Below, piece by piece: positions 12,266-35,341 of a DNA stretch of 64,000 bases. The DNA comes from Phallusia mammillata (Eukaryota): contig OZ281500.1 in assembly GCA_965637545.1 (NCBI GenBank), forward strand, positions 18,662,001-18,726,000, read 5' to 3'. Every line of letters begins with the position of its first letter. Positions within the stretch are counted from its first letter, which is position 1. The position numbers and the translations under genes are program-made. The notes under the pieces were generated by a model that saw only the letters and a list, made by a program, of their open reading frames with translations, did no database searches and was not told the origin of the DNA.

Positions 12266-13209
12266 TTAGGACTGTACCCTCCCGACTTGCACCCTCTCAC
12301 TGACTGTCGCCACACCGTCCCGTATTTCAACTCGTTTCTGAACTCTAAAATATTGCACAACTCTTTGGGGCGCGTCCATAACTGACACAGCAGCGGGTGG
12401 TTCTTCTCTAACATTGTCGTCTTCATCGCTACAGCAACATCGCCAGCAGTATCCGAGGAGCTTGAACAGCAAGTACAGCAGGTAGAAGGGGAAAATGGCA
12501 ATAAGAAGGATGCAACATATGCAATCACAAAGGGTCAGTTCTGTACAAGAAAACATTTTAGCAGGCGAACCACAGCTGCAAGCAAGCCCGAAATTTAAAC
12601 CCGAACATAAAATTATGAGCCCAAACCAGTGCCGGGTTGTCAACTAAAAAATTACAACTATCAGTGTCTACTCATTTTAAAGTGGCCTGGATTTTTGACT
12701 GGCCTGTAGGCACGTGCTTACTTTGCCTAATGGTTAATCCAGCACTGGTCCGACCCTACCCGAATCGTTTTGGAAAAGTCCATTTAGGACCGAAAGTTTA
12801 ATTGACAGGCCTCTATAAGACATACACAATCGAAAATGGTGGACAATGGGTTAAACAAGACGTTTTAGGACTGTTGGACGTTATAAATTCAATCCAGCAA
12901 TATTTCCAGCAACTAGCTACGCATCTTGGTGATTTAGATTTGAAAAAATACGGACACAGAACGTCAGGCCCAGATTTAAGCCAGTTTGATACCAAAACGA
13001 AGCGGCACGAACTCGAGTCAATAAGCTCAGACCGACTTACAACTCTGAGGCAAACTATAACCGGAGAATGTAAATGCAACACGTTGTGGTGCAAAATTCA
13101 ACCAGTGTGTGCTGGTTTATAATTTATATGCAACTGTAACGGTTTGCAATTATTCAATCGTAAGTAGTTGTCAATTTTGTTTACCTCTATCTTCATTTCT
13201 GGTCGGCAT
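12266..13209 (-). CDS. Array A gene A4: Cys-rich membrane protein with beta-hairpin tail
   Basis: Exon 13209-13185 (MPTRNEDR, G|GTAAAC) plus exon 12540-12266 (TACAG acceptor): ELTLCDCICCILLIAIFPFYLLYLLFKLLGYCWRCCC...RVVQYFRVQKRVEIRDGVATVSERVQVGRVQS. Confidence 0.85.
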
Positions 13210-13525
13210 TGCGATCCCGGTTTATTCAGCTCTTGAGCTCTGGTATTAAGTAAGGTCTAAAAGGAGGGTAAAAAACATAAAAAACACAGTACATTACTAT
13301 CTTAAAATACAACACCTTAACATTATGCAATTACCTATAAAACCTCACTGTTTGCGAAAGTGGAGTTTTAAACATTGACAATATAAAGTAAAATATTTGT
13401 GATAAATGATAACGTTACCTCAAGACATTTTATGTATCGAAGATCAATGCAAACTAAATGTGAAGTATGCCAGTAAGGTTCCCTAACTAAACGTTACATC
13501 TCACTCAACTTGTGCACAAGAAAAT

Positions 13526-13625
13526 GCATAATGTAAACTGAGCAGTATAAACTCATATGCTTACGTATATGTAACGTTATATCTACGTAAGCATATGAGT
13601 TTATACTGCTCAGTTTACATTATGC
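13526..13625. repeat. 100-bp near-perfect palindrome
   Basis: Perfect 42-bp arms (13526-13567 and 13584-13625) around a 16-bp spacer that is itself 6/8 self-complementary, centred on AACGTT. Confidence 0.9.
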
Positions 13626-15388
13626 TCGGTCACCTGTACAGGTTATGTACCCTTCGTAATATATATATATATTTCTATATAGTAGCGGTTAGCTGTTGTC
13701 ACATGTAATTATTTCGTAATATAGTTTTATAATTTACTTTAAAAAATATTTTACGCAAAAAAAGTAATATTTTGCTAAGTCCGTACCTCTTGATTTTGTG
13801 GAACGTACTGCTCAATGTAGCTGTGTAAAAAAGTTGTTTACTGTGAACTAGTTCCTCATTTTAGTCCATGACAAAGAAAGTGAGACAAATCAAGCATAAA
13901 ATTCCCTCATTGCACGCTAAATGACTCTGTAAAACGCATGTTGTTTTGCTAGCCATGCCACGCCATGCAAATGAACAATCTTTATAAAATTACATACTTT
14001 GCTTAAGTTCTGGACACACTCCCTTTAATGTCAGACCATTTCCATCAACTTCAGGTTCGAATAATATGCACCACTACCTCCAAAGGCAGAAAAAGTATAG
14101 AAAAAAAACGGAATCCAAAGAAGCTAAACACAATTAAAAAATTAGGATAAAAAGAAATGCAACACATCTTTTTTAAATAAATTTCCTGCAAAACTAGATA
14201 TCTATTCAACAAAATGGTGATGATTTCCACAATACGTATTAGCTTTGTCCTTTAGGATCTTTGCAGAACAAGTTTACTAACTGTTCTAGATCCCTCGAAG
14301 TATATGACACCTTTTGAATTGCTTAATTCTTAGCTGACATGATATCATTACTTGTATTTTGTATAGACAACAGTCAGTAAATAAGTGTGCATTTTCTTTT
14401 AGGTTGATCGTGAAGGCGTTATACCGAATAAAGCTGGTATCCCAAGCATTCCCATGTGGTAAAGCACAGACCAAAATTCTAGCTTGCGGTGCGATTTGAA
14501 CTCAAAGCAGTAGTCACAAGACGGTGCTAGTGATTCGACTTTCGGCCGGTTCACCTTTCTAGTCTCAGCCTTGCCACATGTTAATGCTTGAGAGACCTGC
14601 TTGACTCGGTATAACACCGCTGGTCTGTATGGACGATCTAGGGGTGATCCCAGTGAATGTATTTATCATATTTTTTATGTTTTAAGTGTCGAATTTATAT
14701 TATTTTGTGCTTGCATATTTGAGCACTTTAAGGTTATATCAGAAGTTGACATAGGGGACCTTAACAATAAAAGCAGCCTCGCCAAAAAGCAGCGGTCAGA
14801 AAAACCTACCCACAGTATTTTTTAAGGCACGCCAAACGATTTGCTAGTCCCTGTTCATGTCCTACTACCTATTTGACATAACCTAAAGTCTCAAACCTCT
14901 CTTCTGCTTATTTTCATTTCGTTAGGATGAACTACAACCCATTTTGACACAATAAGTAAATTGGCACTCGGCGTTCAAAAGATTGCCCTCTCCTGCGATA
15001 AAGCAATAATCCTGAAACAGCATTGCTTTAAATTCAATTTAAAAGCCTGGTTTATATTTTAGCTTTCACCTGAAAGCTGAAAGCAAAACATTTTTTATTT
15101 TTCACACGATTACAAAAATGCATTAACGCCAGTGTTTTAATAGCAGCCAGAAAATAGTTTTGCTCCTGCGCCTAAATTATTTAGCATACAGTTAGGTTAG
15201 CATACAGTTAGGTTGCATGCAGACATATTTTAGTTTTTGGTCTAATAATTTAAGTTCACTGCTGTCATAGCTCACAGGAACTGAGGATGCCATAAACATT
15301 TGCAGGAATATATATTCTGTGGAAATACTTTATACAACGGGTAATTCTGTTTGGCCTAGGTTTATACACTGGGTTTTAGATTATAATG

Positions 15389-16811
15389 TTAGGTATGTAC
15401 CCTGATATCCACCCTTTCACTAATAGTCGTCACTCCATCCCTTGTTTTAATGTTTGTCTGTTTTTTGTAGTGGACGACTTGATTTGGTTCTCTTGCAACT
15501 GCGACCAACTTGTTTTCTATGTCTTCGTCATTTTCGTGATCGTCGTGATCTTTACGCAGATAATCCACGCAGAGTCCAAGAAGAATGATTGGCAAAACAA
15601 TGGGATGGAAGACGAAAATAAGTAGGCAAAAAAGCATTTTGTAACAGGTCTTTTCTGCGAAAAAACATGATATGGTAATGCTATTTTTTTCGGGGATAAT
15701 TATGAGGATGTAAATCCGTTTCATAGTTTATTTTGACAATAAATGATTAATAAATCATAAATATTATGCTCGGTCTCGTAAAAACCTTATCAAACGATTG
15801 CTCGTGAAAATAAGACCGCTCGTGCGTTTATCTCAACGCACAGTCCGCGTCGACCCGCCTAAGATGTGTTTTTCAGGTTTTAGCATAAAATTTTAAACCC
15901 GGATTGTCCCAGGGATTTCCGATTCTAGGATTTTTCAAATTAGTCAATCATTTGGTCCCGACGACAATACCCATTTGACCAGGGATCGCCAACCTATAAT
16001 TTATGAACTTTCAGGCATTTGTACAACTCTAAACACTAAATCAAACAACTTTTACAGAATTAGAAAATTAATTTTGGTGAACGTAAATGATCGTGCGTTG
16101 CGGCTCCGATAGAACCACAATTTTTATATTTCTTACAACAAATCCCCGGTCTTCAATTTAAACGGATGTCGACTTGGCATTAAACCAGGGTTACCAAACC
16201 GTTTTCACTCAAGTTCGACTTTTAAAGTAGTCGAACTTTTGAGTTCTACAATTCACACCATTTATTTATTACCAAAGGATAATTTGCATTTTTCGAGCCA
16301 TTTTTTTCGAGTACAAAATAACAATTAACACATTGTGATTCGTGGTGTGAACTTATCGACATATCCCTTCGAATAATTCCCACAATAAATCAATCTATGT
16401 ACAGCGACATTCCACAAAAACGTGTTATAAAAATGGATAAATAAGGTGTTGCCTCCCTTGCGATCGACTTAATATCAGTCCAAAAACGACCACTCTACCT
16501 TAAACAGTTTAAAGTTTTCAACAAAATTCAACCAAAATATTTGTTACTCACTTTTCTGAAAACAAGTTTAGCTGCTACCTTATAGAGTGAAAAAAAGTAG
16601 AAAATATGGGTACATGTTGACAAGTTTTATTTAAATTTTGATGACATTAGTCTTTTGGTTGGTTAGCCTTTACACTTCTCACTTTTATCCGACAAGCTTG
16701 AGCGAAACTTATGATTAGTTTCGGTTTGGTTATGATGTTTGTGAGATTGTACAAATATAGTCCGAGTGTGTTTTTTAACTTCTATTTACCTTCGTCGTCA
16801 ATTGATGACAT
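15389..16811 (-). CDS. Array A gene A5 (divergent beta-hairpin-tail member)
   Basis: Exon 16811-16790 (MSSIDDE, G|GTAAAT) plus exon 15654-15389 (TTTCGCAG): EKTCYKMLFCLLIFVFHPIVLPIILLGLC...QVVHYKKQTNIKTRDGVTTISERVDIRVHT. Confidence 0.8.
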
Positions 16812-18778
16812 CTTGCTATTTCTTTGTATTCAGTTGTAGCAATGATTTCACTTAACTTTTTTTGTACTTTGGTGACGAAAAAGCTGTACAAATCCCAACA
16901 GAATAATTGTGAGATAAAATTCGTCGCACTACTAACATATATCACCACATGCCAATTTAGCAAATTGGCCATAAAACCTTTAAAATTTTCATATTTTTTT
17001 CAAAACGGTCCCTTTGCCATTATTTCGGGGGTTCGAGGTCCTTAAGCCTAAATGTGTATTTCATAAAAACAAAAGTTGATTGCAGGATTTTAGCCAGTTA
17101 TGCAAATTGCGCATAACAATCATCCAAAAACAGCATGTGACATCACAAAACGGACAAAAAAAAACATTACGATTGTGCGCAAACAATTGCATTTTTGATA
17201 GTTATCATTCAATAAAGGCCATTGTTTAGCAATGGAGACAGTCGATTCTCAACTCCACTTTGATTTAAACCTATTTAGTGGCACGAACTGACGCTAAATA
17301 AGATTATAGATTTACTTCAAACGCTTCGCGGTCCCCCCAAAATTGCCTCACGGACCCCTATAAGGACCACGGACTCCAGTTTGGAAACCGCTGCACTAAA
17401 GGGACGTTACCTTTCAAAAAACCTATAGTCATAGGATTGACGCTTAAAAGATTTTTAGAATGGGTACGAGTTAAAGTGCTTACTCTCGCTGTAGATTAAA
17501 AACATGTTTAATTTACACCCCCTTTGTAAAAAATACGAAATTAAAAAAACGAGCCAAAAACGAAATTAAAAAAAATCAAATGAAATTAAACTCAGTGTGT
17601 TGGGTAAGTCTGTTTTTGCTAACAAATAAGATAAAAGTGCGGTTGGAAAGTGTTGGGTGCACATCCGTTTTTTGCCATCAAATTTTAAAAACATACTAGC
17701 TTCGGTCCTAAAACACTGAACTGGACAATAACCCACTCCAATCTATTTTACACAAAAATGCAAAATGCAGGAGTAGCATAAACTTATGTTTACGTTTTCA
17801 AAACAACCAAAAATATTCTGTCATTTATACTGTACTGATGTTACTTGCATCCAACGCTTACTACACAGTGCAGTTGTCACTGTTTAATTATGTCAAGCCA
17901 TTTGATTGGTGATTGCTCATTATGTCAATGTCAAGTGCAAGTACGTAAACAGAACTTGGTTAAAGTCCGCATAAGTTTGGTTTTCTTTCAGTTTTGCGTT
18001 TATAGTGAGCTATTAATTATCTTCAAGTCACACCAGAAAAAGTTTAGCGTACAAAGAGTGGATTTTTGAAATGTGCTCATCCGTTTTGCGTAATTTTACA
18101 GTCATTTTCTTGTAAAATGCAAAGTAATGCAACAACATTGAATGATATACACAGTTATACTTATTATACTGCCATAAATCTGCTATTCGTAACGGTTTTG
18201 ATCTGTCTATTTTTTATATTTTTGCCTTTGCATAACTTTTCTAGATTCATGAACTGTAAGGAAACAGTCTATGCATCACGTGAGGTGGTCGTGAAGTCAC
18301 GAAAACCTTACACGGAAGCATTTAAGCAAGTGGACCTACGGTTGAGAAACACTGCGGATGAAATATTGAGTTTTGAATACCAAGTTAGGTCATTGGAAAA
18401 TTGTCACTGATGATAACTAGCCTAAATATTAGGGAAGTCTATACTTCGTACACTTTACGGAAGAAACTAGTTAATTTTATTAACTGACATCGCCGAAGTT
18501 AAATAAAAATTAAAAAAAAAACACAAATTCAGTGACGCAAGAGTATACGTACATATTAAAATACCCACACAATTGCAAACAGCATATATTGTTGATCAAT
18601 GGTGCTATAACAGTAAATACCTAATGTGGTGAATACACGAAATTATAGGTTAAATTATGGTAAATGCCTAATGTTTCGAATACACGAAATACATTTTTAC
18701 GGTGCAGGATAAAATTAGGTTGTCACAATACCGCTATGGTCCTCATTGGGTTTTAGTCTTAATTCTTGGTGTTTGATT

Positions 18779-19661
18779 TCAGGTCTGCACGGTTACGACC
18801 TGTACTCTCTCACTGACCGTCGCCACGCCGTCCCGTATTTCAACTTCCTTTTGGACTCTGAAATAATGCACAACTCGCCGTGGGGCTTCCATAACATTGA
18901 CGACAACGGAAGGTTGTTCTACGTCATTATCTTCGTCATCATCACTATTCCTACAGCAACATCGCCAGCAGCATTGGAGAAGCTTGTATAACAAGTAGAA
19001 TGGAAGAAAAACGAGAAGTAGGGCTCCGATAATAATGCAACACACGCAACCGCACCAGGTCAGTTCTACTAAGAAAAACCAGGTCAGTTACGTTTGAATG
19101 CAGTAATTTGTTAGACTGTTAGGGGATTGTACGGTTGGTGTTCGGTACATTTTTTTACACAGAGATAGGATGTAAAGTGGTTTAGTCATTGCATTAACCC
19201 ATCTCAGTGGTGGATCACTGATGCAATGGCTTTAACATCATAACAGTAAGCGCAGTGCTGTTAATCATTTACCCATTTCGGCCGAATATGTTTCTTACCG
19301 AAGTTTCGGTTTTGGACGAATTTTTAAAAACTTATTTGATAATATGAAATCAATGTCTAAATATTCATAATCTGTCATTTAGTTACAGTAGCTAATTATT
19401 ACAAATTTGCGAACAAAAGTTTTCCGGACGCGTTGTTGGAGGTGTATGTTTTCGCAAGACTTCTTTATGTACAATTACTTGTGAATTTATTCCTAGGCAA
19501 GAAAAACACGTGAATTTCATTTCATTAACATATGCTTTGCGGTCGGCTTGCGTTTAAGCGGAACTTGAAATTTAGTTTCGGTTTTAGAAGATTGTGCAAA
19601 CATTGTCTGGGCGTGTGTTGCAACTTTAGTGTTTACCTTCATCTTCGTCTCTGGACGGCAT
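18779..19661 (-). CDS. Array A gene A6 (close paralog of A4)
   Basis: Exon 19661-19637 (MPSRDEDE) plus exon 19065-18779: ELTWCGCVCCIIIGALLLVFLPFYLLYKLLQCCWRCCC...RVVHYFRVQKEVEIRDGVATVSERVQVVTVQT. Confidence 0.85.
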
Positions 19662-20513
19662 TGCTTTCTGGAATGTTCTATTTTTCTGTCAAAGAGATCA
19701 TCAAAAACTAATTTGCTGTATAGCTAGACTTTTTGTGTTCTGGTGTAAGAGAGATAAAGAATGATAAACAATAAAATTCAATTAAAAAGTTAAAGACACG
19801 ATAAATCACAAACTTGAAATATCTAAAGGTCAAAATCAACTGACCAAAACTCTTCTTTGTCACAACACAATCTCTGGATAAGCTATAATCATTGGTTTAA
19901 AGCCTACTGGACGTTTGTACTTGTCGTATAAAAGTGTTGAATGCCTTCTCTAACTATGAAATACCTCTCTCTCTCTAGTCATAAGCACGTAATATGCAGG
20001 AATCGCTACTTTTCGTATTTTGGTAAACAAACTAATAATGTCTTTTGTTTATTCTTTATGAATGCTGGGATTGTAAGTATTTCTGCTTTCTACGTTAAAA
20101 GTTTTTATCCAGACCTTTACTCTTGACATCTTAGTCCTAAGTTCCTAACTACGCAGTTGGGCACTGGTCGGTTAAGTGGTTCCTCATTTTTGTCGCATCA
20201 ATAGCAAGTGTGCAAACAAATGAACTATTTAAACCAGTTTTATTCTCAGTTTGCTGGTATTGCGTTAATTATGGGCTTTAAATGCTGTTAAAGCTTTAAA
20301 CACGTAAGTTTAAATGCTATAAATGCTTTAACCACGTAAGTTTAACTGGCAATAGGTTGGTTTTAATATGAGTGCTTTGAAGGATTTCCGTTTATTTTCG
20401 GGCAGTTGTTGTATAAGGTAAAACTGAGGTTGTGGTGACAGATATATCGTAGTGAAAAGTGTCATAGTAAAGTGAGTTTTATGTTGTGTCAAATTTGATC
20501 GCAAGCTCTACAT

Positions 20514-20707
20514 CAGGGGTTCTTAACCATGGGTGCGAGAACTGTTCCTTGGGGGTGCGGGGAGGCTGAATCATTAAGGTTGGTTAGGTCTATTATATAT
20601 AAATACAAAAACCCAGCGGGGTCCGAAACCTGGTGGGTGATTGGAAAGGGGTGCGAAAATTGGTTGGTGATTGGAAAGGGGTGCAGCAAGGAAAAAAAGA
20701 ACCACTG
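20514..20707. mobile_element. hAT-type MITE, inverted copy of the 8059-8257 family
   Basis: TIRs CAGGGGTTCTTAACC...AAGAACCACTG; TSD CTCTACAT/CTCTACAC; internal sequence is the reverse complement of 8059-8257. Confidence 0.85.
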
Positions 20708-22407
20708 CTCTACACACTTGAGCACAGGGCTCAAACATGTTTGCTTAATTTTCATGAGGTAATGTTTTTTGCTCGATTACGTTGGTCATGTGTCCAAATT
20801 TTTGAAATGAAAAAACTATAGGCAGGTTCAGCATTTCACCGTCATGTTAATGATAGGTTACCTACAGATGCAACCATGACATCTCATTAACATGGACCCG
20901 AAACAAGTTTAGTTGTCTGGTATAGTTTTCTGCAGGGGAGATGCCTAATATGTTTCAAGTAGCCAAAAACTTTCCTTCAACAGAATAAACTGTTTCAAAA
21001 TGTTGCTGTTCTTTTGTCTTCCAGTGGTTGTTTTTCCCCTCGATTTCCCATTTGCAGATTTTGAAGACAATACAAGATTTAACTTACAAGATCTGCTTTT
21101 TCAAATCTAGAAAAATATCACCTTATTTGCAAGATCTACTCTTTCAAATTTACCCGCAAGTCTTTTTGTTAACATTTGTATGGCTGATCTTTACCTCTAT
21201 TGAAACAGTGAGCTTGCTAACTTATGTGACCAACCAAAGAGCAAATATTTAAAACGCCTGTAAGCCAGAAATTTACAATATACTCAAAGTTTATGAACAA
21301 TACCGTTTCAATATAAAGTGTTTATGATGCTGAAATCTTTAAAAAATTATCCAAAATCAAAAAAGCCCGAACATAGCAGTGGGCGATTTCGTCTACCGAG
21401 GGGGCGATGGTGACAATTTTCGAAATTGGGGAGCGATTTGACTTCAAAAGGGGGCGATTTTAACATTACTGATGGTATAAATATGTACAAGAACTGTGAG
21501 ACTCTGCTAACTTTAATTTACAAGCAGATATAATTCGTCTTGCAAACAAACACTGGGGACAAGGGACGCATCAGCATAAACATGCTGCTATTTGAATACA
21601 TTGTGTTTTCGGGCGTTTGTTTGTACTATTTGTGATCTCGAAAGCAAGGTTGTGCATTTAATTAGCCACAGGGGACAGGCTATGTATGGTGAAGGGCCAT
21701 ACTTTTTAAATACAACGGTTATAAGCTTTACCTCAAACTTGTTTCGCTTTCAATCTTCCTATAGGCCTACAATCACTTCCCAAATTGCGAAGTATTTGCA
21801 TCATTTAGGATTCTCCTCTACCGAGTAGTGCCCCTTGTCAATGGCAAATTTTTCTCAGATGCGTTAAAAGATGTGAAATGAACCTTGCGTGTTGTACTAG
21901 CAATTAAATTAGGTTTTAACTGCTAATTGAAGAATTCGTGTTTCTAGGTGAATATAACCGCCCACATCTGCTTAAAACCTTTTTATATAAATAACAGTCT
22001 CATAGGGGGGCGGTTTTGAGCCAGTGCCTTGGAAAGGGTCAAAGAATCTTGCAGCGACAAGTGGTCGAAAAGTTATTTAACATAACGGGAATGATAGTAA
22101 GTCCCTAATTTATAAGCTAGGCGAGCTGTAGTTTCCTTGGTTTGTAAGTTAGTTTTGCACACGATGTATTTTGCTTTTTATGTGGCGTTGAACTTTACTG
22201 GAAAATATTGAAATGTCCGTTTCCGTTGGCCTGCAATGCCCTGCACAACCTCAACAGATCTTCTGTATCGTGCTCCCAATAGTGTTTTTTTTTTCAACTA
22301 GTATATTTTACCCACGACAATCGTAACCACTAAAATTTACAGAAGCAAACACATAATAATAAAAAAACGGCATATCTTCAATTAAGCCAATGGATGAGAA
22401 TAAGTAC

Positions 22408-22652: not shown

Positions 22653-22653
22653 T

Positions 22654-22669: not shown

Positions 22670-25600
22670 TCTAAAAAGGTGCCTCCCAAGTTTTGTGATG
22701 GCACTCCTTATTCATTTTGGAAGAATAAGGTGGAAATGTGGCAATTGGTCACGCCAGTTCCCAAAAAAGAACAGGCAATTGTTGTTGTACTAGAAGCATT
22801 TGAGGGTAATACGAAAGCAGAGAGAGCTGTTTCAGAATTAAGTACTGAACATTTGCACCATGACAATGGAATGCTGCGTTTGTTTGCCCATATGGATACT
22901 GCTTTTAAAACCGAAAAAGTTGATGAGGCATATACTGCCTATACAAACTTCACCCAATTTTCAAAACAAGAACTTATGTCAATGAATGACTACGTTTTGG
23001 AGTTCGAACATTTAAATCATAAGCTTGCACTTCATGATATGAAGTTGCCTAATACAATATTAGCTTTTAGGCTACTAGATGGGGCAAATCTTGGCCCAAA
23101 TGAGCGGCAGCTGGCCTTAACAGTTGCAAGCGACTTGAAATATGAGACAATGAAATCTGCTCTAAAAAGAATTTTTCAAAGTCCTAAGCCTTTGAACAAT
23201 GTTCAGGAAGAATCATATGTTGGAAGTTCTAGGTATGCGAAGAAAAGAATAAACAAGGGAAGCTTTAAACAAAACCCTCCAGATAAAACTGGTCGACCTA
23301 CAAGATGTAGGATTTGTGAATCTACCATGCATTGGGCACCTGAGTGTCCACACAGGAACAATGCACGTTGTGTAGGAGAAGTAGCAGAAGCTGTTACTGC
23401 AGATGTGGATCAATGTGAAGAGGTTGAATTAACCTTGGCTACTAACCTGTCTTCCAATGAAATTTTTGTAATTGAATCTTCACATTCTGCGATATTGGAC
23501 ACAGCTTGTACCAGAACTGTGTGTGGAGAAACATGGTTTAACTCCTACTGTAGCAATCTTGCAGCTAATTTGAAAGGAAAAGTGAAAGTTTGTAAAAAGC
23601 GATCAGTATTCAAGTTCGGAGATGGAGAAAAGGTGATTTCATCAAAAGAGGCTGTTATTCCTGCTTTCATTGCTGGTAAAAAGCTATCTATTAAAGTGTG
23701 TATTGTGGCATCACAGATTCCACTTTTGTTGAGCAAGGCATCATTAAAAAAGGCATCAACACAGCTTGACTTGTCACAGGACAAAGTTAAGATGTTTGGG
23801 AAGCCTGTCAAAGTTCATTTGACCAGTAGCGGTCAATATTGCATAGAAATATTACCACGGTGTAATAATGTCAATTTAAGTGATGATGTGCTATTGTCTG
23901 ACACTTTATCTCAAGATGAAGTTGTAAAAGCCTTGAAGAAATTACATGTGCAGTTTGGTCATGCTTCGGAGGAAAATTTGTTAAAGCTGTTAAAAAATGC
24001 TAATGCATGGAAAAAGGATTATGCCACTGTAATTAGTGATGTGGTCCAAAGTTGTGAAGTATGTGCCATACATAAACGTCCTGTTGCGAGACCTGTTGTT
24101 TCGCTTCCATGGGCAAGTGATGTGAATGAAACCGTGGCAATGGATTTACACGAAATTGAACCAGGCTTATGGTATTATCATATGATAGATTTGTTTTCAA
24201 GATTCAGTTGTGCTGTTATAATTAAAAGCAAGTCTTCTTCAGTGATTGTAAAAAACTTTTTAAAATACTGGATTAGCATTTTTGGTGCACCAAAGCATGT
24301 CTTAAGTGATAATGGAAGAGAATTTGATAATCAAGAATTTAGGGACATGTGTGCAAAATTTGGAATTTCAGTGAAAACTACTCCTGCCTACTCTCCATGG
24401 AGTAATGGTGTCTGTGAAAGACACAATATGATACTAACAAATATTCTGCAAAAAGTAAAAATGGAATCAGCATGTGATTGGGACACATGTTTGGCCTGGT
24501 CATTATCTGCTAAAAACTCCATGATTAACAATAATGGATTTAGTCCTAACCAAATTGTGTTTGGAAGAAATCCGCACCTTCCTTCCATTTTAACAGACAG
24601 TCTTTCAGCACTAGAGGATGGCTATGGAACAGTGGAATCACACATGGCGGCATTACATACAGCAAGAAAAGCATTTGTAACCTCTCAAACCTCAGAAAAA
24701 ATTAGACGTGCATTGCGTAAACAAACACGTCAAACGGGACAGATTTTCAACATTGGTGATCAAGTGTATTACAAACGTGACGATCAAGCAAAATGGAGGG
24801 GCCCGGGCAAAGTGTTGGGTCAAGATGGGGCTGTCGTGTTCATCAGGCATGGTGGGCAGTTTATTAAAGCTCATGTTTGTCGTGTGCAAGCAACACATAA
24901 CACGCCAGTGAATCATCAATCTGATATACAACATGAACCCACAATCTCCAGTCCGTCTTCTAATTGCATACATGGCGACAACGAAGATTCAAGTGATGAT
25001 GAAGTATCTAATCTACCACAGGCTCATACTTCAGAATCAACTGGATTGTTAGTTAAAGGAAAAAATGTTCTGCACAAAACAGTTCAGTTTTTAAATGATA
25101 AAGGCACATGTTGCACTGCCAAAGTGTTGAGTAGAGCTGGTAAGGCAACTGGAAAGTTTAAAAATTCATTTAACGTGGAATATGTCACTCCTGATGACCT
25201 TAAAGGCAAAATGGCATGGGTTAATTTTGATAATGTAGAGGACTTGTGTGTTTTGCCAGAAAATGTTGATATTATTGATGAAGTTTACCATACAGATGTT
25301 TCTTTTCAAGTTGCAAAGGAAGAAGAACTAAAAAGCTGGAAGAGAAATGGTGTGTATAAAACTGTACCTTACAAAAATCAAAAGTGTATCTCTGTACGCT
25401 GGGTTTGCACTACCAAAGAACATGAACAAGGAGTAAAAGCAAAGGCTAGACTTGTTGCCAGGGGATTCGAGGAGACTGATCGAGACACTTTAGATAGAGA
25501 ATCACCAACTTGTTCAAAAGATGGGCTAAGAGTTCTTCTGAGCATTGCCAAACAACAGAAATGGGAACTGAAGTCGATTGATATCAAAACAGCTTTTTTA

Positions 25601-26782
25601 CAAGGTGAAACTTTGGACAGAAATATTTATGTCAAGCCTCCAAGAGAAGCAAATTGTTCTAAGGATGTCATCTGGAAGCTTGAAAAGTGTGTTTATGGTT
25701 TAGTAGATGCATCAAAATCTTGGTACAGAAGAGTTAAACAATTTATGCTTGATCATGGTGCTAAAATCAGTATACTTGACAGAGCAATATTTTATTGGCA
25801 TGATGGTAATGTACTTCATGGATACATTTCTGTTTATGTGGATGATTTCTTATGGGCTGGTTCCAATGATTTTGAGCACACTATAGTCAAAGAAATAAGA
25901 AGAACATTTTGTGTTGGCAAAGAACAGCAAAAGTATTTCAAGTATATAGGTCTTGAAGTAGATCAGAGTCAAGACAGTGTTTCTGTAAGTCAATCCGGCT
26001 ATGTTAAAAATTTGCAGGAAATTGCAATCCCTCTGTTCCGTAAGAAACATCCTGATGATGAACTAACACCAGAGGAAAAAGAAACTTTGCGATCTAAGAT
26101 TGGACAACTACTTTGGATTGCAACTCAAACCAGACCAGATCTCAGTTTTGATGTTTGTGTTGCAGCAACTCATTACAAAAGTGCTGTTGTTGGAGATTTA
26201 ATTGCTTGCAATAAAATTATTCGAAAGGCTCAGTCGGATCATGTTACTTTAAAATATTCAAACCTTGGTGACAATTCTAAACTAAAAGTGGTTGTGTATA
26301 CTGATGCGGCCTTTGCAAATCTGTTAGATGGAGGTAGTCAAGGTGCCTATTTGGTGTTTCTTATGGGACAGAAAGGACAGTGCAATCTTTTAAGTTGGCA
26401 ATCAAAAAGAATTCGAAGAGTTGTAAGAAGCACTCTAGCTGCTGAAACATTAGCCATGTCTGATGGTCTTGAAACGGCTTTCTTTCTGACCACTTTATGG
26501 AATGAAGTCTTGTTTGGTAGTCACAAACTGCCAGGATTACCTATTGAAGCTTTTACAGATAGCTGTTCATTATGTGCTGCTTTGCACTCCTGCAAAAGTG
26601 TGTCAGATAAAAGGCTCCGGGTAGATATTGGATCTGTTAAGGAAATGATGGAACAACACAATGTTATCGTATCATGGGTGTCTTCAGAAAAACAACTGGC
26701 AGATTGCTTGACAAAGAAAACTGCATCTTCGTTAGCTTTGTCAGTAGTTTTGGATGATGGACAAATAAAAAAAGAAAAATAA
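22667..26782 (+). CDS. Gag-Pol polyprotein (Gag zinc knuckle, aspartic protease, integrase, reverse transcriptase, RNase H), 1371 aa
   Basis: Zinc knuckle CRICESTMHWAPEC (CX2CX4HX4C); protease ILDTAC; integrase HVQFGH..CEVC with MD/SDNG/CER (DDE); RT KARLVARGF, DIKTAFLQG, VYGL, YVDD; RNase H YTDAAFA, AAE, QLADCLTK. Integrase precedes RT, which is the copia order. Confidence 0.97.
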   Translation: MSKKVPPKFCDGTPYSFWKNKVEMWQLVTPVPKKEQAIVVVLEAFEGNTKAERAVSELSTEHLHHDNGMLRLFAHMDTAFKTEKVDEAYTAYTNFTQFSKQELMSMNDYVLEFEHLNHKLALHDMKLPNTILAFRLLDGANLGPNERQLALTVASDLKYETMKSALKRIFQSPKPLNNVQEESYVGSSRYAKKRINKGSFKQNPPDKTGRPTRCRICESTMHWAPECPHRNNARCVGEVAEAVTADVDQCEEVELTLATNLSSNEIFVIESSHSAILDTACTRTVCGETWFNSYCSNLAANLKGKVKVCKKRSVFKFGDGEKVISSKEAVIPAFIAGKKLSIKVCIVASQIPLLLSKASLKKASTQLDLSQDKVKMFGKPVKVHLTSSGQYCIEILPRCNNVNLSDDVLLSDTLSQDEVVKALKKLHVQFGHASEENLLKLLKNANAWKKDYATVISDVVQSCEVCAIHKRPVARPVVSLPWASDVNETVAMDLHEIEPGLWYYHMIDLFSRFSCAVIIKSKSSSVIVKNFLKYWISIFGAPKHVLSDNGREFDNQEFRDMCAKFGISVKTTPAYSPWSNGVCERHNMILTNILQKVKMESACDWDTCLAWSLSAKNSMINNNGFSPNQIVFGRNPHLPSILTDSLSALEDGYGTVESHMAALHTARKAFVTSQTSEKIRRALRKQTRQTGQIFNIGDQVYYKRDDQAKWRGPGKVLGQDGAVVFIRHGGQFIKAHVCRVQATHNTPVNHQSDIQHEPTISSPSSNCIHGDNEDSSDDEVSNLPQAHTSESTGLLVKGKNVLHKTVQFLNDKGTCCTAKVLSRAGKATGKFKNSFNVEYVTPDDLKGKMAWVNFDNVEDLCVLPENVDIIDEVYHTDVSFQVAKEEELKSWKRNGVYKTVPYKNQKCISVRWVCTTKEHEQGVKAKARLVARGFEETDRDTLDRESPTCSKDGLRVLLSIAKQQKWELKSIDIKTAFLQGETLDRNIYVKPPREANCSKDVIWKLEKCVYGLVDASKSWYRRVKQFMLDHGAKISILDRAIFYWHDGNVLHGYISVYVDDFLWAGSNDFEHTIVKEIRRTFCVGKEQQKYFKYIGLEVDQSQDSVSVSQSGYVKNLQEIAIPLFRKKHPDDELTPEEKETLRSKIGQLLWIATQTRPDLSFDVCVAATHYKSAVVGDLIACNKIIRKAQSDHVTLKYSNLGDNSKLKVVVYTDAAFANLLDGGSQGAYLVFLMGQKGQCNLLSWQSKRIRRVVRSTLAAETLAMSDGLETAFFLTTLWNEVLFGSHKLPGLPIEAFTDSCSLCAALHSCKSVSDKRLRVDIGSVKEMMEQHNVIVSWVSSEKQLADCLTKKTASSLALSVVLDDGQIKKEK

Positions 26783-26793
26783 CATAATGAGTT

Positions 26794-27038
26794 TGTTAAC
26801 TTTATTTCCCAATTAAATTTATTTATTTGGTTTATTTATGCATGACTGATTTCAATGCTTGAGTGATTTTGTACATGTGGCAACTTGTTTGACCTCACCC
26901 TCAGCATGTTTAGTTTAGTAGTTCTTGTGTTGACTTGTGTGAGCAGCTTATGTGAAATACTTGTGTATGTTTCATATTTATGTTTTTTAATAACTTGTTT
27001 ATGATTCTATTTGAATAAGATAATAAAATAACTTAGCA
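26794..27038 (+). repeat. 3' LTR
   Basis: Copy of 22408-22652 followed by TSD AGTAC (27039-27043); preceded by an A-rich purine tract. Confidence 0.95.
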
Positions 27039-27288: not shown

Positions 27289-28661
27289 CTAAACATACTT
27301 AACTGTTTGCACAGTTTGCGTGGTTTGTACAGCTTGTACCTGACCACTAACTGTCTGCACATTTGTTACTCCAACTTTTTCTCCGCTAAAGTACGAGATT
27401 ACTCGAGTGTGTGGAGCAGCTGTAGTCTGCTTTTGTTCGTCGTTTTTAGTAGTGCAGTAGACGATCAACAGATAGATCAAGTAGAATGGAAGAATTACGA
27501 GCACGAGTGCGATTATAATCAGATAACCCGTAAGTTTCACAAGCAGGCAATGCAATCGCCACAATCTGCAAAAAAAACATGCACTTTAACAAAATTTAGG
27601 TAGACTGGACATTTGACAGAACTATATATTGTTATTGTCAGCGAAGTAATGCGTTAGAACGCTATGTTTGACTTGACATGACTTACATCACTGATAATTA
27701 TTAATCAGCATTTTTTTACTCCATTGCTTAAAATCTATAAACAATAGTCGTTTCGATAAAAACTGTTTGTACTGCTAAAAATCACGAATATAATCCAAAA
27801 TCATTTACAAAAATCACAAAAGTCCAAAGATAGTGTTGGGATTCAGCCAGTTCGCTCCGGTTCTATAGAAACGTCTCACAAAATTTTATGAGATCAGCGA
27901 ACCGGTTAGCATTACTGGTTACTGTCAATGGACTTTTTGTAATAGAACCGACTGAAAAATATGACTTTTGTAATAGAACCGGCTGACAAAAAATTTGAAC
28001 CCCACCACCGCCCTAAGATAGCCTACTATAGTTTTTACCCCGTATGTCTTATCGAAGTGGCGAGAATAGGCATTGGAATATAGCAACGTTGATTACTGGT
28101 TTTAAAGGACTTCAAGCCGAAACAGTGCAATACTTTTCAAACAATTTGTGGAAGTTCAGGTCGCGTTGGTCACGAATTTTTCGGTTAGAAAAGTCAAAAG
28201 ATTCTCTTGCCGCATCAAGTGATCGAAAAGTTATTTAACATAACGTGAATGATAGAAAGTGCCTAAAACTTTTTACATATAAGCTAGGCGAGCTGTAGCT
28301 TCCTTGGTTTGTCAGTATGTTGTGCACACGACGTTTTTTGCAACTTTTGTTGCGTTGAATTTTATTGGAAAACATTATAATGTCCGTCAAGCCAAAAAAT
28401 ACGAATTTAACGCCACACTAAAAAAAACTGTTTTCGAAATTACTTATTTACCAAGTGTGCACATGACGTGTAGTTATCGACTTACTCTTTTGGCAGATTT
28501 TACCGATTCAGTCTGTATTAGGTTTTAGTGGAATGTAATTTAATTTCGGTTTTATTCAAATTCCTGTGAGATTGTGCAAACATAGCCTTGGCGTTGCCAC
28601 TTTTGTGTTTACCTTCATCGTCGTCTTTGTAGTAGTATTTTGTAGTACTATAGTACGGCAT
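27289..28661 (-). pseudogene. Array A copy A7 (paralog of A3/A8), frameshifted
   Basis: Exon 28661-28613 (MPYYSTTKYYYKDDDE, phase 1) spliced to 27565 reads DCGDCIACL*. Exon 2 is 1 nt short relative to A3/A8 near 27550. The downstream frame (LVKLTGYLIIIALV...VKYV) is otherwise intact. Confidence 0.7.
27831..28010. mobile_element. Diverged hAT-type MITE in the A7 intron
   Basis: Ends TAGTGTTGGGATTCA...TGAACCCCACCACCG; degenerate TSD TCCAAAGA/CCCTAAGA. A related terminus begins at ~63973. Confidence 0.55.
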
Positions 28662-31587
28662 TGTAATCTTGCTATTTCGTATTCTTTTGTTGAAGAGTTG
28701 TTGCAAAATGTAAACTTGGCTGCACAGCTAGCCCTATTGTGATCTTCTCTAAGAGAGATTAGAGTTATGTTACAATAAATTGCAATTAATAATTTGTAAT
28801 GTTAAACCAAGACGAAAATAAATGTGAAACGTAAAATTATACAAACTGATTCGAAACCTGTACATTTGCCATTCTTTATTTATCTAGATATTACATCTCA
28901 TTGAAACATGATGTACATAAACCGCAGAATTTGTTGCTTTTCGTAATTCATGCAAACAACTGCCTACGTGATTATGAATGTCTGTTGTTTACATTGTATT
29001 AGCTGTTTATTGGATTGTATTTTATATATTTCTGCTTCCTATGATGTTGAAAAATGTACCTTGTATCGGCTAAAACTTGATTCTTGAATTGTTCAATCTG
29101 CACCTTCTGATCTAGACCTCTGCTCTTCTTAGCCCTTACTGCACACACACTAAGTGACTGGTTTAAGTGGTTCTTCATGTTTGTCGCATAAATTGCAAGT
29201 GTGCAAACAAATTAGCCATTCAACTTTTTCGTGTAAGCCACTTTCAGTTTACTGGTATTTGGTTTATTTGTTGGTTTAAGGTTAAAGGAACAAAAACTGA
29301 CACAAAGGTTTTGACTGTGTTGTGTGATTTGAAGGATTGTCGCTCGTTTTGCCAGAGTTCTTTTATGAGGTAAAGTTGCAAATTACCATGACGTAGGTTT
29401 TAGTTGTAATTTGTACCATAAGTAAATAACTCATTCTTGTCTCATTCAAGTTTAGGCCTAATTGCGCGCTCTTTGTTTTTGAGCAAAGGTCAAAAAGTTC
29501 TGCGTTAATTTTTAGGAGGTAAAGTCTACTGCGAACGTACTCGAAATATGTTGGTCAGGTGTTTAATTACATTGAAATACAAAAACCGAACGGTAGGTTC
29601 AGCATGGTACCGAAATGTTTGTGACAAAATCAACTGAATGAATGGGGTGGAAACAAAACTGTCACCACTGTAAACAAAACTATACCAAACATGTTACCTA
29701 CAGATGGAAACAAGACATCTGATTCAAATGGATCTAAAACTAGTTTAGTCTTTCTGGTATAGTTCTGGAATAAGTTGCAATATATTTCAAGTAGCCAAAA
29801 AACCTTAACAAAATAAAAATGTTTCAAAATGCTGGTTGTTTTGTCTTCCAGAGGTTTTTTCTGGGTTACCCCTTTGCAGATTTCAAAGATAATACAGAAT
29901 TTACAAGACCTGCTCTTTCAAACCTGGGATTTTTTTTGCGTATTTAGCAAGACCTGCTCTTTCAAATTTACATACAGATCTTCTCGTTATCATTTATAAA
30001 AGGCTCATCTTACTGAAAACAAGGAGCTCGGTAACTTTTGTGACCAAAGTGCAAATAAGCTTACATAAAACGCCTTTAGACTTTGCAAAGATTTGAGGCT
30101 ACTTTGGAATCAGACTGGATAAAACTTATTATTTTCGTTTCTCTGTAAGTACCTACAGGTTTGAGGCAGAAATTTACAATATATACAAAATCTACAAATA
30201 AAGTCGTTTCGATATAGAGTGTTTGTAATGCTAAAAATCAAGAATTTTTTAATCCAAAACCATAAAAAGATCAAGAAGCCTGAAGATTGTATAGTTTTAA
30301 ACCCTTGTCTTTTTAAAGTTGTGGAGAATGGGCAGTGAGTTGAAATTTTTTTTGCAGTCAGATATAACAAAGTTAATTACTTGTTGTATAAGAAGATACA
30401 CCGAAACTGGGCAATATTTGCCAACAATGTTGAAGTAAGCTAACTGTAAATCCGTTCAAGTTGCTAAAGGAGTTTGAGGTAAACAACTTGCATACCCCAG
30501 ACTATTTTAGTGATTTGAATTCCACTTTTCGGTACGACCCAAAATGTTAGATTAAAAGTCAATGACTCTTCTGCGGCAACAAGTGGTTGAAAAATTATTT
30601 AACAAGACGTGAACGACAGTAAGTGCCTGATTAATACATACAAGCAAGGCGAGCTATAGGTTCCTTGGTTTGTAAGTTAGTTTTGTACACGATGTTTTTT
30701 GCAATTTATGAGGCCAAACGAATTTATCTCATATTTAACACTTGTCCTCGCATTTTAACCCTTATTAACAGATGAGCAGTTATAATTTAAAATTACAGTT
30801 TTCATAAAACGGCGAAATTCCCTTACGAAACAGAAACAGTTTGAAGTGACAGGGGACCATAAAAAACAATAGAACTATACAAGTATTTAGCAAAAAGTTT
30901 TTACCAAAAAAATAGGACATTAAAGCTTGAATTAAAAGTCTTGACATGTCGATTACGCTTTGATTTGTTTCGTTTTTTTTTCACACAATAACACTTAGGT
31001 TGATGTAATTTGCTTCAAGGTTGAGATTTTACTTTCATTAACTTGGGGCAATTTTTGTGTCCTTTTTTCTGCTTTTCTCTTGGTCAGTAAATGACACTCG
31101 TAAATAAGATACTGTGTCATCGCTGCGGTTTTCTTTTGCTTTAGAATGGACTTTCGGTTAGCAAAGTATGATAGCGTTTAATTTCGTTAGCTTGCAATTC
31201 CTTTACTGCAAAGATTTTGTATTTAGTAAACTTGGACAGATTTGCTGTATCGTGCTCCTGACAGTGCTTTTTTCAACCGTTTTATTTAACACGCAAAAAG
31301 CGTAATTACTAAAATTGACAAAAGTCAAACACACAAAAAAAACGACAACATATCTTCAATTAAACCAATGGATGAGAATAAAAACAACAAGTGGACAGTT
31401 ACTTTTATAGCTTGAATTCTTGAACGTACAATATGGTAAATCATGCATCTGATAAGTATTGAAAACGGGATATTTTGTGTGCCACAAACAAACACGCATA
31501 ATCAGCATGTAATGTGTGCACGAATGATTTGACAAAAAAGGTCTTTTAAAGACATCACAACTGCACGAACAAGTGTATGTACAAGCG

Positions 31588-32018: not shown

Positions 32019-32101
32019 AAAGCGTGACGAATCCAAAAAGTACTTCACACAAGTGAAAAAAATGCAAAACACGATTGGTATGTACATAATTTATTTAGGT
32101 C

Positions 32102-32943
32102 CTAAACATACTGTACTGTGTGCACGGTTTGTACAGTTTCTACCTGGCCACTGACCGTCTTCACATCTGTTGCTTGCTCTCCTCCCCTAAAGTACAAGAT
32201 AACTCTTGTATGGGGAGCAACTGTAGTCTGCTGTTGTTCGTCGTCCTTAGTGCAGCAGACGATCAACAGATATATCAGGTAGAATGGAAGTATAACAAGC
32301 CCGATTGCGATTATAAGTAGATAACCCGTGAGTTTCAGAAGCATGCACGTGCAATCGACGCAATCTGCGAAAATCATGCATTTTAACAATAATTAGCTAG
32401 GCTGGACATTTGGCAGAACTATATATTGTTATTGTCAGCGTAGTAATGGGTTTGAACGCTATGCTTGCCTTGCCATGCCTTACTTCACTGATGATCAACA
32501 CTCTTGATTTTTTTATTTCTCTTATTTTTAATGAAAGGTTGATTCAAACCGGTAGCCCCAAAAGTGTGCAAATGTTAAAAAATAACCTTGGCGCTTTAAT
32601 GAAGATACATGTAAAATATTACTTAGGTCACAATTCGAACATATCACAAAAACAATGCGAACACCATGAAAGCATCAAGCCAATGTAGGAATTTAACACC
32701 ACACTTGCCAAAGTACATTTTTCGTAATTACTTAATTACCCAAGTGTGGAAATTACGTGGTTTCTATTCATAACGATTTATTCTTTGGGCAGATTTCATC
32801 CATTTAGGCTATCTTAAGTTTAAGTGGAATGTAAATTTAGTTTCGGTTTTATTCAAATTTCAGTGAGATTGTGCAAACATGGTCTTGGTGTTGCTGCTAT
32901 TTTTGTGTTTACCGTCACTGTCGTCGCGGTAGTAGTACGGCAT
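32102..32943 (-). CDS. Array A gene A8 (paralog of A3/A7)
   Basis: Exon 32943-32913 (MPYYYRDDSD) plus exon 32364-32102 (TTTCGCAG): DCVDCTCMLLKLTGYLLIIAIGLVILPFYLIYLLIVCC...APHTRVILYFRG...TVSGQVETVQTVHTVQYV. Confidence 0.85.
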
Positions 32944-34767
32944 TGTAATCTTGTTATTTCGTATTCTTTTCTTGAAGAGAAGATCAAAAACGTATATTTT
33001 GCTGCACGGCTAATTCTTTTGTGATCTGGTGTAAAGAGAGATTAGAATCAAATAACAACAGATTTCAACTAAAAAATTGTGATGTAAAATAACGACGAAA
33101 CTCATCGTGAAACATCAAATTGTAAAAGTTTTACAAACTAACCCAAAACCTGTAAATCTCCCTTTAATCTTTATTTATATAAAGTGGCCATGTTGACAGA
33201 ACATAACCTTTCGAAACGTGAAAGTTTTGGTTACCTACACCAGTAATTCGGCCTTTTTTAACTAGACACTACGTCTCATTCAAACATGATGCAAAAGATT
33301 TGTAAGTGGGGTAAACAATTGTCTAAGTGATTAAATGTCTGTTGTTTACATTGTATTAGCTGTTGCTTATATTTCTGCATTCTTTGATGTTAAAAGTATA
33401 CCTTATATCGGCTAAAACTGTTTTCTTCAATTGTGTAATCTGCACCTCTTGATCTGGACTCCTGCTCTTTTTTGCCCTTACTGCACAGTTAAGCACTGTT
33501 TGGGAAAGCAATTCCTCATTTTTGTCGTATCAATGAGCTAATCAAAGTTAACGTGTAAACTCAGTTTTGCACTCAGTTTATTGGTATTGCATTTGTCGGT
33601 TGGGTTGATAGCAGTTAAAAGCACCAAAGTTTCACTGACACAAAGGGTGACTTTGTTATGTGGTTTGATGGATTGTCGCTCATTTTGCAGACAGTTGTAA
33701 ATTTGTTGTTAAAATCTGGTTGCGCGCTCTATGTACTTAAAGTCAAAAATTCTTCGTTAATGTTTATGGTGTAAAGTTTACTGCCAACTTGCTCTATCTA
33801 TGTTTGTCGAGTGTTTTATTACATTGACACAAAAAACCCGAAAGGTAGGTTCGGCATGGCACCAAAATGTTTGTGAAACAACCAAAAAAAACATACTAAA
33901 TGAAGCAATGGAGAAAATTTTACCGACTTTTACCAACGTGAACAAAACTACCAAATTCTGCACTAAAATTAATCAGGACCCCTTCTTTTAGTATTCTTAG
34001 CCCCTACTACACAGTTAGGCACTGGTCGGTTTGGCTTCCCATTTTTGTCGCATTAGTAGTAAGTGTGCAAACAAAAGTGGCGTTTTAAAGTCTATCTGTA
34101 AACCCAGTTTGACTTTCAGTTTACTTGTATTGCATTCATTAAATTCTGTTAAGAACACAGAAGTTTTACTGACACAAGGGGTTGAACTTTGTGTCGCTCG
34201 TAGGATTGTCGCTCGTTTATTGGCATTGGTTGTATAAGGTAAAATCATAAATAACGTCTGGTAGGTTGGCCTGACTTGTGGCATAAGGAAATGAAATGTT
34301 TCTTGTGTCAAAATTGATTTGATACATATTTAAGCACAAGAGTCATCTATGTGGGTGAATTATCTAGATATTTTAAAGTGGAAATCTTCAAGGCAAGTTT
34401 AGCATTGCACCGAATCACTCATGACAAAAGAATAAATGATGAAACACAATATTTTTTAAGATAAGATGAACATAAATTCATTACTGGGATCAGCCCTGAA
34501 GCGTCTATGCAGACCAGCGATCACGGCACACTCATATATAGAAATCACAGTACGCCAGGCCCATTGACAATATTTTTTATTTACAATAAACTAAACGCAC
34601 GATTTTCTGAGCTGTAAGATCACACAAGTTTGACACGGAAATTCACAATATATTTAAACATAAAGTCATTTTAACATAGAATGTACATAGTGCTTTAAAA
34701 CAAACACAAATTAATCCAAATCTAACAAAAAACACTAAAAAAGCCACAGGATAGTAAGTTCTCTGCT

Positions 34768-35341
34768 CTAACGTTCCACTCGCGTCATTCGGACTCTCTG
34801 GCTCACTGTGGCCACTCCGTTATGTACTTCAACTTCTCGTGATACTGAGAAGAGATGAAGTACCTGGCTTGGAGCGCTAACCACGGATTGAACAGCTGAC
34901 GGTTGCTCAACGTCATCGTCGTCATCATCGTCTCCACACATACAGCGCCAACAACCTTTGAGGATCTGATAGATGAGATAGAATGGACAAAGGACTATGC
35001 CCAATGGGATGCCGATAAAGATACACAAAATCCAGCCGCAACAAGATATCTCTGGTGAAAAATATAACTTAGTATTGTTAATTAGAAACCTTTTATTTAT
35101 CTTTTCGTCTGTGGAGGTAACTGTGATCTTAATTTTTGGTTGTTGCTAGTTTTGTTACGTCTATATTACTGCAAAATGCCAAGCTGATGTATTTAGTGCT
35201 CAACCTCTACAAGCATAATATGGATCTGTTTTTAACAACAATAGCAATAACACAATACATTTGATAGCACTGAAATGGCAATAATCAAAACTCTTCTGTT
35301 ACCAGTGAGCATTTACCTGTATCTTCGTCGGAAGACGGCAT
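34768..35341 (-). CDS. Array A gene A9 (beta-hairpin-tail member)
   Basis: Exon 35341-35317 (MPSSDEDT) plus exon 35051-34768 (TTTCACCAG): EISCCGWILCIFIGIPLGIVLCPFYLIYQILKGCWRCMC...QVLHLFSVSREVEVHNGVATVSQRVRMTRVER. Confidence 0.85.

Follow-up and report, generated by a model that had tools for sequence, protein, structure and literature searches.

The DNA analysed here is a 64,000 nt stretch of the Phallusia mammillata genome (assembly GCA_965637545.1, contig OZ281500.1, positions 18,662,001–18,726,000 of the forward strand). This whole stretch is referred to as the window, and positions are counted from its first letter. With ~36% GC and GT-AG introns the window is eukaryotic in character, and its minus strand carries a tandem array of genes for small membrane proteins. 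The feature of interest is a short, Val/Thr/Ile-rich tail at the C-terminus of several of these proteins, which probably forms a β-hairpin. Eight genes (A3–A10) share a structure that is predicted from splice signals alone, without a spliced read: (i) a coding exon 1 of 6–16 codons, (ii) a phase-1 intron of 265–1135 nt, and (iii) one large exon 2. Their products are Cys-rich membrane proteins, ~100 aa long in the paralogs with the full tail (hereafter, hairpin paralogs) and 307 aa long in A10. They have no signal peptide or ectodomain, because an in-frame stop sits 3–22 codons 5' of the ATG in 8/8 genes.

Four genes, all on the minus strand and all predicted as above, encode the full tail. The first, A4 (99 aa; 12266–13209), consists of exon 1 (13209–13185), a 644 nt intron, and exon 2 (12540–12266); its tail, at 12269–12367, is made up of strand 1 (12320–12367, 16 aa), a DG dipeptide (12314–12319), strand 2 (12269–12313, 15 aa), and the stop codon. 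In A5 (95 aa; 15389–16811; exon 1 16811–16790, intron 1135 nt, exon 2 15654–15389), the tail at 15392–15484 has a strand 1 of 15 aa, DG at 15434–15439, and a strand 2 of 14 aa. The tail of A6 (103–104 aa; 18779–19661; exon 1 19661–19637, intron 568/571 nt, exon 2 19068/19065–18779) lies at 18782–18880, with a 16 aa strand 1, DG at 18827–18832, and a 15 aa strand 2; a tandem acceptor, TAGTAG at 19066–19068, permits A6 isoforms one residue apart. Finally, A9 (102 aa; 34768–35341; exon 1 35341–35317, intron 265 nt, exon 2 35051–34768) ends in a tail at 34771–34869, with a 16 aa strand 1 that lacks Tyr, NG at 34816–34821, and a 15 aa strand 2. A first-pass annotation of this DNA, made by a model from the sequence alone, had located the motif between 12266 and 35051; these positions are indeed the A4 stop and the start of A9 exon 2, while A10 (38036–39548) falls outside of them. 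Its description of two Val/Thr/Ile-rich arms flanking DG or NG in A4, A5, A6 and A9 is also borne out.

A HMMER scan of 1.84 billion representative sequences returned two matches, P0001 at E 4e-18 and P0002 at E 7e-8. P0002, a Cys/Val-rich repeat protein of 772 aa, was dropped as a compositional match. Conservation outside the window is therefore seen in one sequence only, the singleton P0001 (51% identity to A9, 49% to A6), which may come from another species or another locus. The layout of 16 residues, a DG/NG/DN dipeptide, 15 residues and a stop is common to A4, A6, A9 and P0001 (DN in the latter). Each arm of A5 is one residue shorter (15/14 rather than 16/15), and the register is kept. 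Both arms carry Val at every fourth residue; P0001 retains this Val pattern while its strand-1 Tyr is lost and its strand-2 S-E-R is changed, as expected for a structural pattern.

The tail motif is real and under selection. Across the last 15 codons, the six pairs among A4, A6, A9 and A10 give a synonymous divergence (pS) of 0.55–1.12 and a nonsynonymous divergence (pN) of 0.11–0.32; since synonymous sites are at or near saturation while pN is low, the tail is conserved at the protein level. These values bear on the idea that recent tandem duplication or gene conversion left the tails alike without any selection. The array does contain many internal duplications, and some intron starts align (those of A6 with A7/A8). 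However, pS and pN largely refute that explanation, and no intron pair among A4, A5, A6, A9 and A10 aligns, which makes it hardly credible.

The tail had been described as conserved despite divergent linkers. This applies to A4/A6, where 29/35 tail residues (pN 0.10) but only 7/16 linker residues (pN 0.30) are shared. It does not apply to A4/A9 and A6/A9, for which the tail (17–18/35, pN 0.31–0.35) and the linker (7–9/16, pN 0.31–0.34) are alike. The proposed alternation of residues along the strands fared similarly: by β hydrophobic moment, it is marginal for strand 1 of A4 and A6 (p ~0.047) and does not reach significance for strand 2 in 5/6 sequences, the exception being strand 2 of A5 (p 0.019).

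Strand 2 has a mean Chou-Fasman β propensity of 1.06–1.26, and the last 35 residues of A4, A5, A6, A9, A10 and P0001 have a net charge of +2 to +5. One possible reading of this charge is that the hairpin, basic and rich in Val, rests against the anionic inner leaflet or serves as a sorting or retention signal, with no need for a protein oligomer. A parallel is the cytoplasmic β-coil-β motif of coronavirus E, which has been described as a Golgi-targeting signal, although Golgi targeting was not lost when only the E strands were disrupted (PMC6537279). We consider such a role unlikely, also because it leaves unexplained the residue-by-residue retention of the lone A10 strand described below.

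High β propensity is likewise compatible with tails that nucleate cross-β (amyloid) signalling filaments, in the manner of RHIM/cRHIM. RHIM-like motifs occur in the cytoplasmic part of insect PGRP receptors (PMC4262963), and the RHIM tetrad, (V/I)Q(V/I/L/C)G (PMC9444067), is matched by VQVG in A4; A3 additionally carries a long Gln-rich triplet repeat. Cross-β assembly, one of two options raised in the first-pass annotation, is nevertheless disfavoured in its RHIM form: the tetrad is present in 1/10 sequences (A4), and no Pfam RHIM match was obtained for five tails or P0001. Furthermore, a fibril of parallel, in-register strands would presumably place the like charges of the net-positive arms on top of one another, and the register that is conserved is antiparallel (see below). 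Overall, filament nucleation seems distinctly improbable.

Support for a hairpin comes from three sources. Firstly, AlphaFold2 places two strands around the turn in both models obtained: residues 64–77/80–93 for A6 (four-sequence alignment; predicted local distance difference test, pLDDT, 56–70 across the block and <50 in the linker) and 59–70/73–84 for A5 (single sequence; block pLDDT 79–80). Secondly, a cross-strand pair score is maximal at the DG/NG register (26, with 17 the next best of nine registers); this register is the best in 4/5 sequences and tied in A9, and the score is reached by 132 of 20,000 joint column shuffles. Given a two-residue turn, Val faces Val at positions 4 and 8 (counted from the turn) in all four sequences of equal length (A4, A6, A9 and P0001), with K/R opposed to E/Q in between, and A5 has an I:I pair at position 4. 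This result is support rather than proof, because the score is a crude one, set up with the pairs already in view and applied to related sequences. Thirdly, both arms of A5 have lost a single residue, which preserves the basal H:R and V:V pairs; such paired deletions point to constraint on the hairpin itself. Taken together, these observations uphold the original prediction that the tail probably forms a β-hairpin.

The Tyr of strand 1 suggests a different function: that VxYFRV is an immunoreceptor tyrosine-based inhibitory motif (ITIM) recruiting SH2 phosphatases, the β pattern being incidental. The ITIM consensus is [ILVS]xYxx[ILV], to which VQYFRV (A4) and VHYFRV (A6) conform, and a YF dipeptide is also found in A3, A7 and A8. 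A conserved ITIM was rejected, as the consensus occurs in only 2/5 hairpin-bearing sequences (the tails of A5, A9 and P0001 lack it). Since strand 2 would also be left unexplained, ITIM-type signalling is a very remote prospect.

The most informative member of the array is A10 (307 aa; 38036–39548, minus strand; predicted exon 1 39548–39530, intron 589 nt, exon 2 38940–38036), which had been noted to keep only the second strand. This is confirmed: its last 15 residues (38039–38083, followed by the stop) score 41.0 against a profile of A4, A6 and A9. With A10 shuffled, no match this high arose anywhere in 2,000 trials, or at the C-terminus in 20,000. When the 54,205 six-frame 15-mers of the window are ranked, the four tails are followed by one scoring 22.0 (A4, A6 and A9 rank at the top by construction of the profile). 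The A10 strand shares 8–9 of its 15 residues with A4, A6 and A9 (pS 0.91–1.12, pN 0.22–0.31), and sits flush with the C-terminus, at the same distance from the stop as in the hairpin paralogs. Neither strand 1 (205/400 shuffles) nor the turn (121/400 shuffles) is detectable in A10. Its membrane segment, of the same Cys/Pro type, is homologous to those of the other paralogs (hhalign E 7e-5). The linker between the two is ~250 aa long, rich in Pro/Ser/Thr/Glu, and holds YDLP, YDIP and YAN. Motifs of this type bind SH2 proteins in transmembrane adaptors: YDxP is a motif for Crk/Nck. YXN recruits Grb2 in such adaptors (PMC3342071). An internal duplication at 38351–38630 (minus strand) doubles a YDxP-containing unit of A10.

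Strand 2 is the only element common to A4, A5, A6, A9, A10, P0001 and, weakly, A7/A8. Judged by sequence, the family-wide unit is thus strand 2 and not the hairpin. With no strand 1 of its own, the A10 strand would have to pair in trans, either with the strand-1 edge of a sibling or with a foreign domain. The second option leads to a substantial rival explanation, namely that strand 2 is a linear motif which docks on some unrelated cytosolic domain at the edge of its sheet, with strand 1 merely extending or masking the motif in the short paralogs. In that case the proteins would be transmembrane adaptors of an ordinary sort, tied to a common scaffold. Domains known to bind ligands by strand addition include PDZ, FERM, filamin and LC8. 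Docking is favoured by strand 2 being the sole shared element, by its fixed distance from a free C-terminus, and by the adaptor motifs of A10 and A2 (YDxP, YxN and PPxY), which match the layout of transmembrane adaptor proteins (TRAPs; PMC3342071). On the other hand, the last four residues differ in each hairpin paralog (RVQS, RVHT, TVQT, RVER, AVEK and TVAE across the tails compared), and a shared PDZ ligand was rejected on these grounds. The LC8 motif has a Gln anchor with flanking Thr/Val in 8–10 residues (PMC12057147); the corresponding Gln is kept in A4, A6 and A10, and gives way to R or D in A5, A9 and P0001. The paired A5 deletions, which show the hairpin itself to be constrained, also speak against docking. 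Docking on a foreign domain remains tentative, and is nearly as likely as the co-assembly set out below.

The hairpin paralogs have an acidic N-terminus of ~8 residues, a Cys-flanked hydrophobic segment, and an acidic linker. In 8/8 window sequences examined, an invariant Pro lies inside an uncharged span of 18–32 residues, with Cys 5–25 residues before and 10–19 residues after it. The Cys following the segment form CxxC (CWRC) in A4, A6 and A9 and CCC in A10; A5 and A3 have a single Cys. AlphaFold2 models the membrane segment as one long, unbroken helix. By analogy, the anchor fits either a type III helix whose juxtamembrane Cys form a palmitoylation cluster, as in LAT and PAG (PMC3342071), or a re-entrant helix-Pro-helix, as in stomatin (PMC12344292). 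Both topologies would place the tail in the cytosol; we infer this location, and palmitoylation of the segment. A 42-column tree of the anchor region resolved none of its seven inner branches.

Our preferred reading, with a probability of about 0.35, is that the hairpins pair edge-to-edge, that the paralogs co-assemble under the membrane, and that A10 is a signalling subunit recruited via its lone strand. In this model, small S-acylated membrane proteins would end in a cytosolic, 33-residue β-hairpin (16 + 2 + 15) with one Val-rich face and two free edges, which alone is unlikely to be stable. Strand 2 of each hairpin would line up, edge-to-edge, with strand 1 of its neighbour, and the hairpins would build a small sheet or ring beneath the membrane. 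A4, A5, A6 and A9 would be the structural subunits. A10 would join by pairing its lone strand 2 with a free strand-1 edge, bringing along its tyrosine-motif linker; within an ordered-lipid microdomain, this would yield a platform of clustered adaptors. We infer oligomerisation, paralog mixing and a signalling role for A10, and rank co-assembly first because a single mechanism then accounts for the constraint on register, the Val-rich face and the lone A10 strand. The step from hairpin to oligomers (barrel or cross-β) and mixed paralogs, proposed in the first-pass annotation, is reasonable and gains appeal from the lone A10 strand.

There are precedents for the proposed co-assembly. Caveolin-1, a palmitoylated membrane scaffold, forms an 11-stranded barrel of C-terminal strands (PMC9094659), and the 16-stranded C-terminal barrel of stomatin closes the ring of another palmitoylated scaffold (PMC12344292). 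Flotillins form paralog hetero-oligomers (PMC13000311), which are common in SPFH proteins (PMC13000311, PMC12344292). A more specific version is unlikely: an independently evolved, ~100-residue scaffold resembling those of caveolin and stomatin, with re-entrant palmitoylated anchors, a cytosolic hairpin barrel, and single-strand guests such as A10 that plug in their last 15 residues and display phosphotyrosine linkers. The tandem array would then encode a signalling ring at the membrane with interchangeable subunits.

Several points weigh against co-assembly. The predicted template modelling scores of the AlphaFold2 models are 0.27–0.33, and Val/Thr-rich sequence flanking DG may yield a hairpin model irrespective of its stability. 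To this are added the limits of the register score given above and the fact that, in both pairs involving A9, the linker is conserved as much as the tail. With one outside homolog (P0001) in the libraries searched, covariation is not measurable. Strand 2, which is not amphipathic in 5/6 sequences, is unlike a classic barrel strand, and caveolin and stomatin contribute one strand per subunit rather than a hairpin. Finally, a foreign partner would account for the lone A10 strand just as well. A transmembrane β-barrel pore was rejected, given the non-amphipathic strand 2 and the charged arms. A complex prediction for the 39 aa A6 tail in four copies, run without an alignment and with controls not folded, gave a score of 0.01, which speaks neither for nor against binding.

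Comparison with known systems places the proteins, by analogy, closest to palmitoylated adaptor and microdomain-scaffold proteins in their way of working, outside the caveolin, SPFH and RHIM groups and, A10 excepted, outside the Tyr-rich TRAPs. LAT, NTAL, PAG and LIME similarly have a very short N-terminus, one hydrophobic segment, a juxtamembrane Cys cluster and a non-enzymatic tail. The short N-terminus and a CxxC-type Cys cluster are found here too, and several Tyr docking motifs (YDxP twice and YxN once, in a long Pro-rich linker) are found only in A10. The array proteins differ from TRAPs in having no sequence match to them, in having Cys also before the hydrophobic segment, and, in the ~100 aa paralogs, in combining at most one tail Tyr (one in A4, A5 and A6, none in A9 and P0001) with a conserved β-hairpin.

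Caveolin-1, on which the proposed mechanism is modelled, is a small palmitoylated protein with a C-terminal strand in an oligomeric barrel that faces the cytoplasm (PMC9094659). However, its single, parallel strand lies at the end of a helical spoke, whereas the hairpin paralogs have a predicted antiparallel hairpin after an acidic, low-confidence linker. No caveolin family was found in Pfam for 14 exon products and P0001, nor any caveolin chain among PDB sequences at E≤10. Stomatin recalls the array proteins in its membrane anchor, where Cys flank a central Pro (C30, P47, C53), and has a C-terminal barrel of the kind proposed here (PMC12344292). In contrast to SPFH proteins, the array proteins lack an SPFH domain (no such Pfam family was found) and a coiled coil, have a different Pro-to-Cys spacing, and, in the short paralogs, leave ~20 residues between anchor and hairpin. 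The A9 anchor gave no sequence match to any PDB chain, stomatin included. RHIM and HET-s resemble the tails in being short, β-prone motifs beside a low-confidence linker, with VQVG in A4; they differ in that the tetrad is confined to 1/10 sequences with no Pfam match, and a hairpin register is conserved instead. Shisa-like proteins, PRRG4 and CYYR1 recall the PPxY motifs of the neighbouring A1 and A2, the latter also with a Cys/Pro membrane segment. As judged from their description, they are set apart by a signal peptide and an extracellular Cys-rich domain, both missing here along with any Pfam match; the hairpin paralogs have no PPxY.

If the tails co-assemble, the array would encode the smallest membrane-microdomain scaffold known to us, with a host/guest strand logic for its signalling subunits, and would represent a third independent route, after caveolin and SPFH, to a β-closed ring on a palmitoylated anchor. 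If strand 2 instead docks on a foreign domain, it would be a new linear motif. Under either reading the module is short enough for peptide work. Its reach may be narrow, the family so far consisting of this locus and P0001.

The C-terminal β module is apparently undescribed and the family lineage-restricted. The tail motif string was absent from the literature searched (subscription journals lay outside its scope), with nothing similar under related topics, and nothing relevant was found on ascidian palmitoylated adaptor clusters. Pfam gave no family at cut-off for the 14 exon products, and none at all for the five tails and P0001. Indexed homolog searches yielded 0 of 1,597 candidates for a first alignment ('A1'), P0001 itself alone of 3,863 for a second ('A2'), and 0 of 1,792 for A10 exon 2. 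PDB sequences returned two chance-level rows for the query labelled A1, and none for the A9 anchor or the A6 tail. ESM Atlas gave no usable match for A6 (recognition score 1728, below 2300) or P0001, and 168 and 267 pattern matches in JGI metagenomes included no confirmed ones. In structure space, Foldseek retrieved nothing at E≤0.001 for the A6 or A5 model (the top A5 rows being cyanases at E>1); the best VIA-align Z was 4.5, in rows dominated by the long helix that hardly probe the hairpin.

A sister subfamily, on the same strand, consists of A3 (156 aa; 9167–9998, predicted; outside the coordinates first annotated), A7 (27289–28661, frameshifted in exon 2) and A8 (32102–32943; predicted exon 1 32943–32913, intron 548 nt, exon 2 32364–32102). 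The TVSGQV stretch of A7 (27337–27360) and its counterpart in A8 (32141–32164) had been likened to the tail, and do match the first eight residues of strand 2, albeit weakly (5/400 and 2/400 shuffles). The accompanying claim of a conserved AP..R...YF in A3, A7 and A8 did not hold up, the match being no better than shuffles in an ungapped test (79, 37 and 58 of 400). The A3 tail (9170–9390) contains a run of (V/I/M/L)Q(T/P) triplets, nine of them [TVIM]Q[TV], and may be a prion-like or multivalent LC8-binding region; A3 and A7 have nine and four LC8-type triplets, respectively. Both A3 and A8 end in VQYV, and we take the YV ends of A3, A7 and A8 to resemble a class II PDZ ligand. A7 exon 1 is longer and Tyr-rich, and its exon 2 has one base fewer than that of A8 near the start, so that in this assembly a stop follows after 25 residues; A7 is either a pseudogene or an assembly error.

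Exon 1 of A6, the DNA upstream and the intron start (19552–19791) align with their A7 and A8 counterparts (28522–28795 and 32818–33078). As the exon 2 sequences of A6 and of A7/A8 belong to different subfamilies, this pattern suggests chimeric genes produced by unequal crossing-over. Pyrimidine-rich, acceptor-like sites lie 47–87 nt 5' of the ATG of A4, A6, A7, A8 and A10 (13256, 19739, 28748, 33025 and 39597, minus strand) and may mark either 5' untranslated region introns or spliced-leader trans-splice sites. Positions 1900–21000 are mostly covered by one DNA run, possibly from the source sample; since its long contigs differ by only 0–7 letters, the assembly appears sound here. For three contig sets of guessed RNA origin, the sole listed piece on a gene in this interval is an unspliced contig of 166 nt that covers the A6 acceptor; the matches listed include no intron joint.

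Two neighbours of these genes, A1 (2328–2750, minus strand; two hydrophobic segments) and A2 (last exon 4865–5194, minus strand), contain several PPxY motifs, which are typical of Nedd4/WW-domain adaptors. A2 has the Cys/Pro membrane segment of the hairpin paralogs, and carries PPxY and YDLP motifs in place of the hairpin. A second tandem family, of exons encoding two transmembrane segments and Gln/Thr/Pro/Tyr-rich tails, lies at 46912–47142, 52415–52645, 55937–56311 and 59051–59395 (minus strand); its best Pfam row is TMEM174 (E 0.0023, under the cut-off). Lastly, the plus strand harbours an intact Copia-order long terminal repeat (LTR) retrotransposon at 22408–27038. Its 245 bp LTRs are 100% identical and flanked by a 5 bp target duplication (AGTAC), and its open reading frame of 1371 aa (22667–26782) has integrase before RVT_2. 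The insertion, ~250 bp downstream of the A7 stop, is very recent.

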